DNA from: Pecten maximus
Lineage: Eukaryota
Length of the DNA stretch: 64,000 bases
Direction: 5' to 3'
Assembly: GCF_902652985.1 (NCBI RefSeq)
Contig: NC_047017.1
Coordinates: forward strand, 11,160,001 to 11,224,000
The position numbers and the translations under genes are program-made. A model generated the notes under the pieces. It did not search any database. It had not been told where the DNA came from and worked only from the letters and a program-made list of their open reading frames with translations. The stretch's first letter is position 1; each line of letters opens with the position of its first letter. Of this stretch, positions 55,550 to 60,692 are shown piece by piece.

Positions 55550-55789
55550 CTGAAAAAGAAAAGTGAATACTGTTAATTAGGACTTATTTGATTAGACTGA
55601 AAAGAGAAAAGTACCCACCAAGCGCTGTGAAAAATTGGTCGAGAAAACAATATGGCAGACAAAATTCTGTCAACAGAAAGACAAGACAGACATTTACCCT
55701 TTAACCTCTCAGCCCTCGTTGTTGACAATATACCATGAAAACACAGATGTTTGTAAGTATTTTCTTTAAATACCCCCGGTACTATTAGA

Positions 55790-56542
55790 TTGTACCTTTT
55801 TGTATACATGTATACACCATAATTACACCTTAATCTGTAATGGCCTATAGATAGTGACCATGGTAACTGACCAGTCTGGAGTTGTGTACCTTTTTGTATA
55901 CATGTATATACCATAATTACACCTTAATCTGTAATGGCCTATAGATAGTGACCATGGTAACTGACCAGTCTGGAGTTGTGTACCTTTTTGTATACATGTA
56001 TACACCATAATTACACCTTAATCTGTAATGGCCTATAGATAGTGACCATGGTAACTGACCAGTCTGGAGTTGTGTACCTTTTTGTATACATGTATACACC
56101 ATAATTACACCTTAATCTGTAATGGCCTATAGATAGTGACCATGGTAACTGACCAGTCTGGAGTTGTGTACCTTTTTGTATACATGTATACACCATAATT
56201 ACACCTTAATCTGTAATGGCCTATAGATAGTGACCATGGTAACTGACCAGTCTGGAGTTGTGTACCTTTTTGTATACATGTATACACCATAATTACACCT
56301 TAATCTGTAATGGCCTATAGATAGTGACCATGGTAACTGACCAGTCTGGAGTTGTGTACCTTTTTGTATACATGTATACACCATAATTACACCTTAATCT
56401 GTAATGGCCTATAGATAGTGACCATGGTAACTGACCAGTCTGGAGTTGTGTACCTTTTTGTATACATGTATACACCATAATTACACCTTAATCTGTAATG
56501 GCCTATAGATAGTGACCATGGTAACTGACCAGTCTGGAGTTG
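55790..56542. repeat. 94-bp array built from the MED6 exon-4 3' end plus donor site (8 copies)
   Basis: CAACTCCAGACTG|GTCAGT recurs at 56530, 56436 ... 55872; copies are nearly identical. Confidence 0.96.
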
Positions 56543-56612
56543 ATGACTGAGGCGAGGTCCGGAGCTTGGTACACCACTCCAGCGATGATGTAGTAGTCCG
56601 CCAATGGCACCA
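56530..56612 (-). CDS. MED6: MED6 exon 4
   Basis: atattacag|TG ... CTG|gtcagt; [28 protein letters not shown]. Confidence 0.95.
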
Positions 56613-57126
56613 CTGTAATATGATAAGTGTATGTGGATTTTACCTCAAATGTGTGTTCCATTATTTCAAACCTAATACATTGTACATGCAATTTGATAAA
56701 AACTCCTGTTTACTTAATAAACCTATTTAATGGAGAAAGTTTCAATACAATATCAGGATTAAAACACAGAGTTTTTTTTTTTTTTAGAAATGACATTCTA
56801 TTTGCTATTCTTGAACATAGCTAATAATATTCTCAGGTTAAAACACAAAAGATGATATTGGTAGATAAGTGAGGTTAGTAATTCTTTACAGCTTTCATTA
56901 AGTGCACTCTTCCACTTTACAAGATTAACGTCAGGGTGTGCTTACCAGGTATGTTGAATATAGTGCTTCAAATCAGGAGTGGGATCATGGTAACATATAC
57001 ATTTATTTATAAAAAAATATAGATACTGTATTTGAATGTACATGGATCAACATACAACCAAATGTTATTTTGACCCAAATTATGCACAATCCCCAACAGT
57101 AAGTACTTCTATAAGTTTATACAAAC

Positions 57127-57529: not shown

Positions 57530-57698
57530 TTTAATTGATCAAGGCTTAATCTCTGCATTTTGATGATTTCATTGTTGCAGGTGTGGTCGTAAAAAGGGTT
57601 GCTCCTCTCGCTGAAGTAGTCCATCACATTAGAGGTGTTCAGCAGTGGGATGAATGTGCTGTCATGCCAGCTAATGCCAAGAGCACCGGCATTCAAAT
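57530..57698 (-). CDS. MED6: MED6 exon 2
   Basis: aattttacag|AT ... TTA AA|gtaagt; [42 protein letters not shown]. Confidence 0.96.
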
Positions 57699-57798
57699 CT
57701 GTAAAATTAAAATTAAACTGAGCATTAGTAATGTAAGATTTTCCAAATCTTTGCAATCATAGAAATTTCTGGTCAGTTCTTGATATACATTGTACATA

Positions 57799-58159
57799 TG
57801 TAGCGAGACTGGAATGGGTCGATCATTGACGACAAGGTAGCTCAATTGACAGAGCATCCATCTAGTGATCAGAGGTCCTGGGTTCGAACCCTGATGTGGC
57901 TGCTACAATTTCTCTTGTTACAAAATTGGCCAGCTACAGCTTGCAAACCCTTGTTGAATATTGGGAGTATACTTAACCAGGGGATAACGGTACTTGTTGT
58001 CTTTGCAGGAGAAGACATGAAAAAAAGAGGAATTTAGCAAGACTTGACTGGATCGATCATCAGCAACCAAGTAGCTCAATTGGTAGAGCATCTGTCTGTG
58101 TTCAGAGGTCCCGTTCGAACCCAGGTCTGGCTGCTACATTTTCATTTTCTCCTGCTACA
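57799..58159 (+). mobile_element. 361-bp non-autonomous LTR element (TRIM) with tRNA-like sequence inside both LTRs
   Basis: LTRs 57799-57922 and 58033-58159 (TGTAGC/TTTAGC ... TACA). The internal part starts AAATTGG and ends with purine tract GAAAAAAAGAGGAA. TSD CATA/CATA. A box GTAGCTCAATTGG and B box GGTTCGAACCC lie in the LTRs. Confidence 0.8.
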
Positions 58160-58737
58160 CATAAAATGTACAGGTACATGCACTAAGTATGTTCTCTGAC
58201 TTAAAATCCGGCAATGTATCATGGTAAAATCAAAGGCTCTAAATAGAACAAATAATGTAAGAATTTCCATTTTACCTGTCATTTCTAGTTCGTTACAAAT
58301 GGATCGCACATTTATATATATATGTAGGGGTGTCTGGTTGAATCTGCCCAGGGAAAAATATATTTTATGTGTATAACTATACTCTAGTCTATGTAGATTT
58401 ACTTTTCATATGATTCAATAATCTACATGTATGAGTAATAAATATTACGCATTAAATAAGGTTCACGAGCTTTGTCTGGTATTGTTATTTGTCGATGTAA
58501 GTTCAAATTAATACAAATTTATTTATATAAGGTAATATGAGGTACATAAAGACACTATATTTCAAAGTGATTATAATCAAGTTTGTATTCTGATTAGGAT
58601 AATAACCCTTAAGCAAACATGGCTTACGGCACGCATGGATGTGGCGCTGGGCCGTGTTGTTACAACTGAGTTGCTCACAGTCAGAGTCTCTCATTTTCAG
58701 GCCTTCATTTCTAGGTGTGATCCATTTCATATAATGA

Positions 58738-59148
58738 TGTTGTGACATGACCGGGAATCGAACCCATGCAGGATCTCCCACTTGGTAGGCGAGCATTCTA
58801 ACCATTGTGCCAAAAATCCGGACGGTAGGCTCGAGGGTCTAAAGCTGCCTAATTTTACCACATTTCTCCCCATCTTAATTTTGATGTCCTTTTCGATCTC
58901 TCTGAGATCATACCCGGTTTGACTTACGGTAGCTACCACACATCATTTCTGACGGTGATCCATTCATATAGGACAAGAACAGTCATCACCAGATGGAGCG
59001 GGAAAATCCGTTTGTCGATGACGCCATTGTTGTGGCCGGACGGAGAATCAAACCTGGGACCTCCTGCTTGGTAGGCCGGCGTTCTAACCATTGTACCAGA
59101 AGTCCGGACGTTAGGCTCGAGGGTCAAACGCTGCCTAATTTTATCACA
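58738..59148 (-). mobile_element. 411-bp non-autonomous LTR element (TRIM) with tRNA-Gly-like sequence inside both LTRs
   Basis: LTRs 59148-59028 and 58862-58738 (TGTG...CAACA). PBS-like aTGGCGTCATCGAC follows the 5' LTR; PPT AAGATGGGGAGAAA precedes the 3' LTR. TSD ATGA/ATGA. Confidence 0.85.
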
Positions 59149-59445
59149 ATGATATATTATATCATTTGTTACCAACACCTTTGATTAGCTACTGTTATAA
59201 CGGAAATGAGTTTCACACTTTTGTCCTATTTTCCGGAAAAGTAGATAAAAGTGTCAAATGCTCTTCCGATACAACAGTACAGTACTTCAACTACATTGTA
59301 GCAAGCCTACAGTAGCTAAGCTGCAACTGGTAGCTGTGCTTATAGTCTCCATATACTTGAGTAGACAATATTTATCTTCGTTTAACTTAAATATTTACCA
59401 ATGTACTACATATATTTTCAATTATATACTTATTTCAATTATTAC

Positions 59446-59455
59446 CTTTGTCCAT
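59446..59455 (-). CDS. MED6: MED6 exon 1 coding part (ATG GAC AAA G), best candidate
   Basis: ataATGG context, donor AAG|gtaata, phase 1 joins exon 2 ([14 protein letters not shown]); lies just downstream of a promoter-like motif cluster. Total CDS 729 nt / 242 aa. Confidence 0.6.
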
Positions 59456-59766: not shown

Positions 59767-60692
59767 CAGAGACATATATACAGAGAGATTAGTAACATCG
59801 CTATTTCCCCGTACACATAGTGGCTCCCTTTATTCGTGACCACTCAAGCATATCCCTTATCGAGAGCGTCCTGTCTCCTATCAAACACACGCGAGCGCAG
59901 GTAAATCGGGCTATGCGCATGTGTGTATCGTAGTATTGGAACTTATTCGACATGTTCTGGTTAATCCGCCATTACCAAAAACCAAAACATCGTCATTTTA
60001 AATACACACAGAAAGCACATCGTTTTATTTTGGCCACTACAAAAGTTACCACATTAACCAAAAACTATCAAACTTATGGGATATAGTCTTATTGATCATG
60101 CATATTGTTGTCATTTATCCGTATTTTCGAAAATCCATTGGGTCCTATTCGACATGTCCAAGTTTGTAATTAAGCCGCCATTACGTCAGACCAAAACATC
60201 GTCAATTTTAAACGCACACAAAAAGCACATCGTTTTATTTAGGCCACTACAAAAGTTACCACATTAACCAAAAACTATCATACTTATGGAATGTGGTCTT
60301 GATTATCATGCACATTGTTGTCATTTATCCGTATTCTCGAAAACCCCATAGGGACTTTTCGAAAATTGGAGATTCCCGCCGATCTTTCCTGCGTTGTGCT
60401 TGACTTTCATACTCAAAATACAAACACTTGGACATCAAATTGTGATATATTTCATATTGATGACACTTCTGCACTTTGATATTAATAAAATTAAAGCACA
60501 TAATTGGATCTTGGTGATGATTTCAAATAGAAATTATCGATAATTATGTGTCTGGTTTTCAAGTTTTCTCCAATATGGCGTCTAGTGAAGACTAAACCGA
60601 GCGACCGCAAAGGATTGTGGGAAGGTCAGGGGCCACTATGTAAACACAAGGGCAAATAGAGAGCTGCCAATCTCTCTGTATATATGTCTCTG
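59767..60692. mobile_element. 926-bp non-autonomous TIR DNA transposon (P-superfamily-like)
   Basis: Perfect 24-bp TIR CAGAGACATATATACAGAGAGATT with imperfect subterminal extension; 7-bp TSD ATCATAG; internal ~205-bp direct duplication (59940-60345). Confidence 0.88.

Follow-up and report, generated by a model that had tools for sequence, protein, structure and literature searches.

The window, a 64-kb stretch of the Pecten maximus genome, contains a short sequence in which two direct repeats carrying tRNA-like units enclose a non-coding interior. The question is whether this sequence represents a tandem dimer of a SINE, duplicated host tRNA genes or a miniature LTR retroelement (TRIM), and, in the last case, which primer and which helper served it. 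According to the analysis described below, it can be regarded with high confidence as an old copy of a Helenus TRIM with a primer site that matches tRNA-Arg, which was likely transcribed by Pol III and likely mobilised by a Gypsy helper.

Structure and location of the window copy

The element occupies positions 57799-58159 of the plus strand (361 bp) and has an LTR-interior-LTR layout with the outer ends TGTAGC ... GCTACA. On the same strand, it is flanked by the target site duplication (TSD) CATA (57795-57798 and 58160-58163), which was assigned from the sequence, self-alignment and the TSD counts in the family. The 5' LTR (57799-57922, plus strand, 124 bp) is of the Helenus-2_PeMa type, with the T-tract reduced to three T; by eye, 105 of its 124 bases are identical to the 129-bp LTR given for this P. 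maximus family in the available part of PMC10886601. The 3' LTR (58033-58159, plus strand) is 127 bp long, and the two LTRs share 98 of 121 aligned bases (81%, E-value of the match 2e-21). The interior (57923-58032, 110 nt) contains TGG four nucleotides past the first LTR (57927) and terminates in a polypurine tract (58019-58032, plus strand) that is shortened in the window copy. The first-pass annotation had described the two repeats, the 110-nt interior, the TG..CA outer ends and the TSD with exact coordinates, and both the TGG and the purine tract ahead of the second LTR were found where it had placed them. Self-comparison of the window revealed no second copy of the element.

The description of the LTRs themselves had been too uniform, since the same boxes, loop and ends had been attributed to each of them. 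Only the second LTR has the whole A box GTAGCTCAATTGG (58072-58083); in the first (57838-57849) it reads ...AATTGAC. As for the B box, GGTTCGAACCC is whole in the first LTR only (57881-57891), and the second (58113-58122) has lost its first G. The loop CTAGTGA is present in the first LTR (57862-57868) and absent from the second, and TG..CA describes the outer ends of the element, while the second LTR begins with TT. Box A (TRGCY..YGG) and box B (GGTTC) of Helenus are each intact in one LTR of the window copy. The tRNA-like unit of the first LTR was placed at 57831-57903 of the plus strand, the position at which the LTRs of young sister copies give tRNA-Thr(AGT) calls; the second LTR contains TTTT at 58139-58142. 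ARAGORN called no tRNA in the window, and the single tRNA match of Rfam, in the second LTR, was sub-threshold (21.9 bits, cut-off 29).

A coding exon of MED6 lies at 57530-57700 of the minus strand (Pfam Med6, E-value 5e-13), and an RNA contig is spliced from position 57700 to the sequence at 59449. The element is located antisense within the MED6 intron 57701-59448, approximately 100 bp from the acceptor. The insertion was present in three other samples, and no empty allele of the locus was seen in these three DNA runs; since the DNA contigs show presence only, fixation is not proven. The window copy is an old, decayed intronic insertion that is likely inactive.

Other repeats were observed in this region. 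The same MED6 intron contains, on the minus strand (58695-58862 and 59000-59148), a 92-nt direct repeat, 86% alike, with tRNA-like boxes, which may represent a SINE or else a second family of Helenus. A near-perfect tandem array with a 94-bp unit and a palindromic TGTATACA motif spans 55697-56654. Perfect 24-bp inverted repeats (59767-59790 and 60669-60692), 878 bp apart and MITE-like, are located just upstream of the first exon of MED6.

The dispersed LTR family and its probable tRNA-like promoter

In a DNA search against the genome of the species itself, 40 of 1181 candidates were scored, and these contained 44 matches. The exact 20-nt 5' tip of the LTR occurs 744 times in the genome (reversed control, 0), which points to at least 744 LTRs of the family. 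The samples analyzed below were drawn by similarity or exact motifs and are biased to young copies. The fetched loci contained 77 distinct multi-LTR elements, of which 30 with eroded or undefined ends were excluded and 47 had TG..CA at both ends. An exact 4-bp TSD was found in 30 of these 47 intact copies versus 2.1% in the control of mismatched flank pairs and, with one mismatch at most, in 40 of 47 versus 13.7%. At other lengths, exact duplications were found in one (3 bp), two (5 bp) and none (6 bp) of the 47; among the 17 copies without an exact 4-bp TSD, 7 differ at more than one base. The targets are TA-flanked: 24 of the 30 exact-TSD copies have T at -2, and 20 have A at +2. In addition, 27 lone full-length LTRs were found among 73 LTR starts examined, and 14 of the 27 have an exact 4-bp TSD of their own; 40 of the regions in this sample were picked for their unpaired look, so that the figure is not a genome-wide rate.

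These counts agree with the 4-bp TSDs of Gypsy-type insertion proposed in the first-pass annotation, and they bear directly on the reading of the locus as a tandem dimer of a tRNA-derived SINE mobilised by a LINE. The A and B boxes and the tRNA-like fold in each repeat would suit such a dimer. However, it would not explain the fixed TG..CA ends, the constant 4-bp TSD (30/47) or the primer site and purine tract between the repeats; moreover, an A-rich tail is absent, and the tRNA-like unit begins 32 nt inside the repeat. The reading is refuted by the TSD counts together with the solo LTRs and is rated as very improbable. Assignment to tRNA-derived SINEs (SINE2) was rejected, with no 5' tRNA head, 3' tail or variable-length TSD found. 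The earlier view of the sequence as a true LTR element, namely, a TRIM that has 4-bp TSDs and whose LTRs each contain a tRNA-like unit, was upheld.

Several unusual arrangements were seen among the loci. One of them (L146) contains three head-to-tail LTRs with 6-nt spacers followed by an Arg interior, and another (L212) has two solo LTRs, separated by 8 bp and each flanked by a TSD of its own. Further Helenus subfamilies seem to be represented in the genome by L080, L082, L188, L189 and L200, whose related LTRs are older and are combined with other interiors and TT linkers.

In young LTRs, ARAGORN called a tRNA in 12 of 13 loci, either Thr-AGT or Ser-AGA, at LTR positions 33-105. The warning of the first-pass annotation that such elements are easily mis-annotated as tRNA is borne out by these calls, and the same calls are the argument for duplicated host tRNA-Thr or tRNA-Ser genes or pseudogenes. 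Such an origin is hardly credible, since LTR subtypes within a single family differ in their anticodon (AGT versus AGA), the units are located in dispersed LTRs with TSDs, and those of the window copy fall below the Rfam cut-off.

Of 135 full LTRs, 101 have an intact B box and 98 an intact A box. TTTT is found within the last 30 nt in 122 of the 135 and upstream in just 2, and it is absent from 80 of 88 interiors. The tRNA-like piece is likely the promoter of the element, and the boxes with the terminal TTTT fit a Pol III unit, from which Pol III transcription is inferred. For Helenus as a whole, Pol III transcription has been proposed and is unvalidated, according to the available part of PMC10886601. 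RNA contigs from three of four runs contain family sequence (run X24 gave no cover); starts, ends, strand and polymerase are not readable from these contigs, which often extend into unrelated flanks.

The last observation, together with the intronic position of the window copy, would suit a variant of the preferred reading in which host genes supply the genomic RNA through Pol II read-through, with the tRNA-like unit as a passenger. As an obstacle for Pol III, the T4 tract is a further point in its favor: the T4 in the first LTR should end many transcripts early, and a full-length RNA assumes read-through. Against the Pol II variant, the window copy is antisense to MED6, and the boxes are kept both across subtypes (B in 101 and A in 98 of 135) and across the families published in PMC10886601, as far as its available part goes. 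We consider this variant improbable and retain Pol III as the likely polymerase.

The tRNA-Arg primer site and relation to known families

In the family, the interior begins with TGGCGAGCTTGCC, four bases past the LTR. Matching of the primer site to the 3' ends of host tRNAs, suggested in the first-pass annotation, identified tRNA-Arg(ACG), with which the family site agrees over 13 nt. A pattern composed of the T-arm and the primer-site complement had 11 matches in the genome (control, 0), and all eight tRNA calls in the five loci scanned with it were tRNA-Arg(ACG). The exact 13-mer occurs at 58 genomic sites: 53 in the family, including a few assembly duplicates, one in another LTR remnant and four unrelated. 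In the window copy, the site (57927-57945, plus strand) is decayed and interrupted by a 6-nt duplication that other alleles lack (it is missing in one allele of run X1 and in run X5); once the duplication is removed, 11 of 12 bases match. The interior body (57948-58018, plus strand) is of the Arg class and contains two predicted hairpins. Its alignment scores were 124 with the Arg class, 61 with the His class and 45 with the Lys class; therefore, the element was filed as a sister subfamily of Helenus-2_PeMa and not as Helenus-2_PeMa itself.

With a total length below 1000 bp, a non-coding interior, a tRNA-derived LTR, a primer site, a polypurine tract and a 4-bp TSD, the window element is almost certainly a member of Helenus. 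The first-pass annotation had used the name Ajax for tRNA-bearing TRIMs; this was mistaken, since in the available part of PMC10886601 (Kojima 2024) the tRNA-bearing TRIMs are named Helenus and Ajax is the type that bears 5S rRNA. The same source gives 4 bp as the TSD of Helenus in animals and 51 Helenus families in pteriomorph bivalves. Cassandra of plants and Ajax of nemerteans are, like Helenus, described as TRIMs whose LTR contains a Pol III promoter, but their promoters are 5S rRNA-derived. Ajax also has a 5-bp TSD and a Leu primer in the portion of PMC10886601 considered here, unlike the 4-bp TSD and Arg primer of the present family; membership in Ajax was rejected on this TSD and on Rfam, which gave a weak tRNA match only. 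In the bivalve biv-TRIM, as far as the accessible part of PMC6934838 describes it, solo repeats, tandem arrays and interior hairpins likewise occur, but no canonical primer site was found and no tRNA-like promoter is described for the repeats.

The LTR family is already published as Helenus-2_PeMa, and only the interior with its primer is new relative to the available part of PMC10886601. Helenus-2_PeMa and the Arg subfamily share the 4-bp TSD, the 3' interior and the purine tract. They differ in the interior, which is 90 nt long with a tRNA-Lys(CTT) site in the former; in the latter, it measures 110 nt, contains a tRNA-Arg(ACG) site and differs in its 5' body. By sequence comparison, the latter is a sister subfamily with a primer unlisted in that source. 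The Lys-class interiors of the genome are identical to the published one at about 88 of 90 positions by eye. Helenus-1_ArIr of Argopecten irradians, as presented in the same part of PMC10886601, has a near-identical LTR with a Lys-type 93-nt interior and a Lys primer, which suggests that the Lys configuration is ancestral.

Three motifs of the Arg interior had no matches in the supplement of PMC10886601, and the Arg-ACG primer is listed for no animal Helenus in its Fig. S2; the Arg primer of wasp Helenus given there is Arg-TCT. In a search of the literature for non-autonomous LTR elements of bivalves, primer sites and tRNA-Arg, only PMC10886601 and PMC6934838 were found to be relevant. The Arg interior may have an entry in the current Repbase or Dfam.

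Exchange among primer classes and candidate helpers

Interiors with Lys, Arg and His primer sites were all found on the same Helenus LTR. Exact junction patterns gave 221 Lys, 47 Arg and 18 His matches, although stringency differs among the patterns and the 18 His matches are not all on the family LTR. The His site matches host tRNA-His(GTG). The Arg and His interiors are homologous and have a common predicted hairpin with changes on both sides, while the second predicted hairpin, ahead of the purine tract, is common to the Lys, Arg and His classes. The pairing pattern (89% of cells paired and three pairs changed on both sides, in nine related sequences with weak statistics) is suggestive, and the folding energies of the interiors were not clearly beyond those of shuffled sequences (z from -0.06 to -1.75). 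By eye, a hairpin before the purine tract was also seen in the interiors of Helenus-3_PeMa, -4_PeMa and -5_PeMa as published in the accessible part of PMC10886601, with a C-G to G-C swap. The hairpin ahead of the purine tract is a candidate packaging signal.

Most Arg copies have a distinct LTR subtype with an AGA loop. This Arg-type LTR is present at both ends in 25 of 33 single-unit elements with an Arg body, and 9 of 11 Lys-body elements have the other LTR type. Combinations of the classes were nevertheless found. Locus L002 has the structure LTR-His-LTR-Arg-LTR with a chimeric middle LTR, and L007 has the structure LTR-Arg-LTR-Lys-LTR; each of them keeps one exact TSD. Lys and Arg are also mixed in L156, which has no exact TSD. 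In L124 and L003, Lys-type LTRs and Lys-type purine-tract ends flank an Arg interior, and the LTRs of L124 are 98.4% alike. The comparison of these sequences indicates that the primer classes exchange and recombine. The window copy likewise combines a Lys-type LTR with an Arg interior; with a median LTR-LTR identity of 94.6% in the Arg class, it is the second lowest of 33 and could be either an early member of the Arg class or the product of an old recombination. LTR position 104 was dropped as a marker of recombination, since CpG decay gives the same appearance. Tandem arrays occur both here and in Cassandra, for which template switching and LTR-LTR recombination are the two proposed routes in the available part of PMC7215508.

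Some loci may preserve traces of priming. In L115, an LTR of the family stands alone, lacks a preceding purine tract and continues into a stretch that agrees with the tRNA-Arg complement at 22 of 23 nt, a tail that reaches 10 nt past the primer site of the element; in sequence, this is the form expected of plus-strand strong-stop DNA. In L002, the His interior contains exactly 18 nt of the tRNA-His complement where sister copies differ. Copying of a tRNA halts near 18 nt, at the methylated A58. In L053, an LTR with a longer Lys-like tail is fused to an inverted His-class element. Against relics of tRNA copying counts the fact that no primer match of 15 nt or more was found in full Arg-class elements, the sole 15-nt match in the genome being located in a different LTR remnant. 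The L115 insertion (L115:1386-1640; G000:C15:5305074-5305330) is a composite one inside a minisatellite. Approximately 80 bp past its lone LTR, a different element contributes an LTR end on the opposite strand that matches tRNA-His over 19 nt, and the whole looks like captured cDNA ends.

As for the helper, a Gypsy with the same primer site is present for the His class and was not found for the Arg class. The former is a Gypsy-type element of approximately 8.7 kb that encodes gag, protease, reverse transcriptase, RNase H and integrase in Gypsy order. Its LTRs measure 770 bp and have TGTA..TACA tips, its purine tract is similar, and each of the two copies checked has a 4-bp TSD. Its features fit those of the kind of helper needed, which makes it a candidate helper. 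Loci L108 (G000:C17:2450506-2459265) and L109 (C9:39785445-39794210) contain a young His-primed Gypsy family with 4-bp TSDs, LTRs 99.6-100% alike and a third ORF after pol (199 aa, zinc-finger-like motifs). A 34-nt stretch common to the His-primed Gypsy and the His interior of L002 was dropped as proof of partnership because it is mostly LTR tip and tRNA-templated sequence.

Searches with 15-nt (1 match), 17-nt with one mismatch (7 matches) and 13-nt (58 matches) sites revealed no coding Arg-primed helper, and the Arg-site matches outside the family showed no gag/pol similarity (3-kb loci, 20 kb at the remnant and 9.8-kb stretches). An Arg-primed helper may have a decayed primer site or lie outside the assembly. 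The Arg-primed element suspected in a long LTR of L086 turned out to be a nested His-primed Gypsy adjacent to a remnant. In L086 (2228-2780) and L089 (830-1380), an LTR-like end of approximately 140 bp precedes an Arg primer site of 19 nt and a further stretch of about 400 bp. This sequence is present twice, flanking an internally deleted Gypsy copy, and is possibly the remnant of an Arg-primed element.

Such a remnant (L067/L086, L089), possibly derived from a helper, is part of the case for a reading in which the element is the same but each primer class has a helper of its own, the Arg Gypsy has disappeared or is missing from the assembly, and genomic recombination or gene conversion produced the mixed copies. 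It would also account for the LTR subtype being mostly linked to the interior (25/33 Arg-body and 9/11 Lys-body elements), and co-evolution of Helenus with its helpers is favored in the available part of PMC10886601. What separate helpers explain less well is that a single exact TSD is retained by two mixed tandems, which would not result from a crossover between two loci, that Lys-type LTR and purine-tract ends surround an Arg interior in L124 and L003, and that the composite insertions L053 and L115 join ends of different primer classes. Recombinants between primer classes could also arise via genomic gene conversion. Separate helpers are a serious possibility, although somewhat less likely than not. 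It is suggested more tentatively that the Lys, His and Arg cassettes are interchangeable on one LTR, packaged in the same Gypsy particles and swapped by template switching; a literature search on co-packaging in TRIMs found nothing relevant.

For the Gypsy-mobilised Helenus TRIM preferred here, the following cycle can be proposed. Pol III would start near LTR position 33, in the tRNA-like unit, sometimes pass the T4 tract of the first LTR and stop at the T4 of the second, with R corresponding to the tRNA-like unit. A Gypsy particle would take up this RNA, minus-strand synthesis would be primed by tRNA-Arg and plus-strand synthesis by the purine tract, and a Gypsy integrase would insert the product at TA-flanked sites. 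There is about an even chance that the different primer classes come together in shared particles and swap the primer-bearing part by template switching.

For genome annotation, the family means that tRNA finders will call hundreds of its LTRs tRNA-Thr or tRNA-Ser genes. For Helenus, it adds an Arg-ACG primer class beyond the published catalogue and natural recombinants among primer classes on one LTR. According to its available part, PMC10886601 leaves open whether Helenus changes its primer together with the helper or by a helper switch, and with this family the question of primer versus helper change is testable in one genome. If the cassettes are indeed interchangeable, the Arg class would have been moved by a helper that uses a different tRNA, and a Pol III mini-retrotransposon would be able to change its primer and keep its helper.
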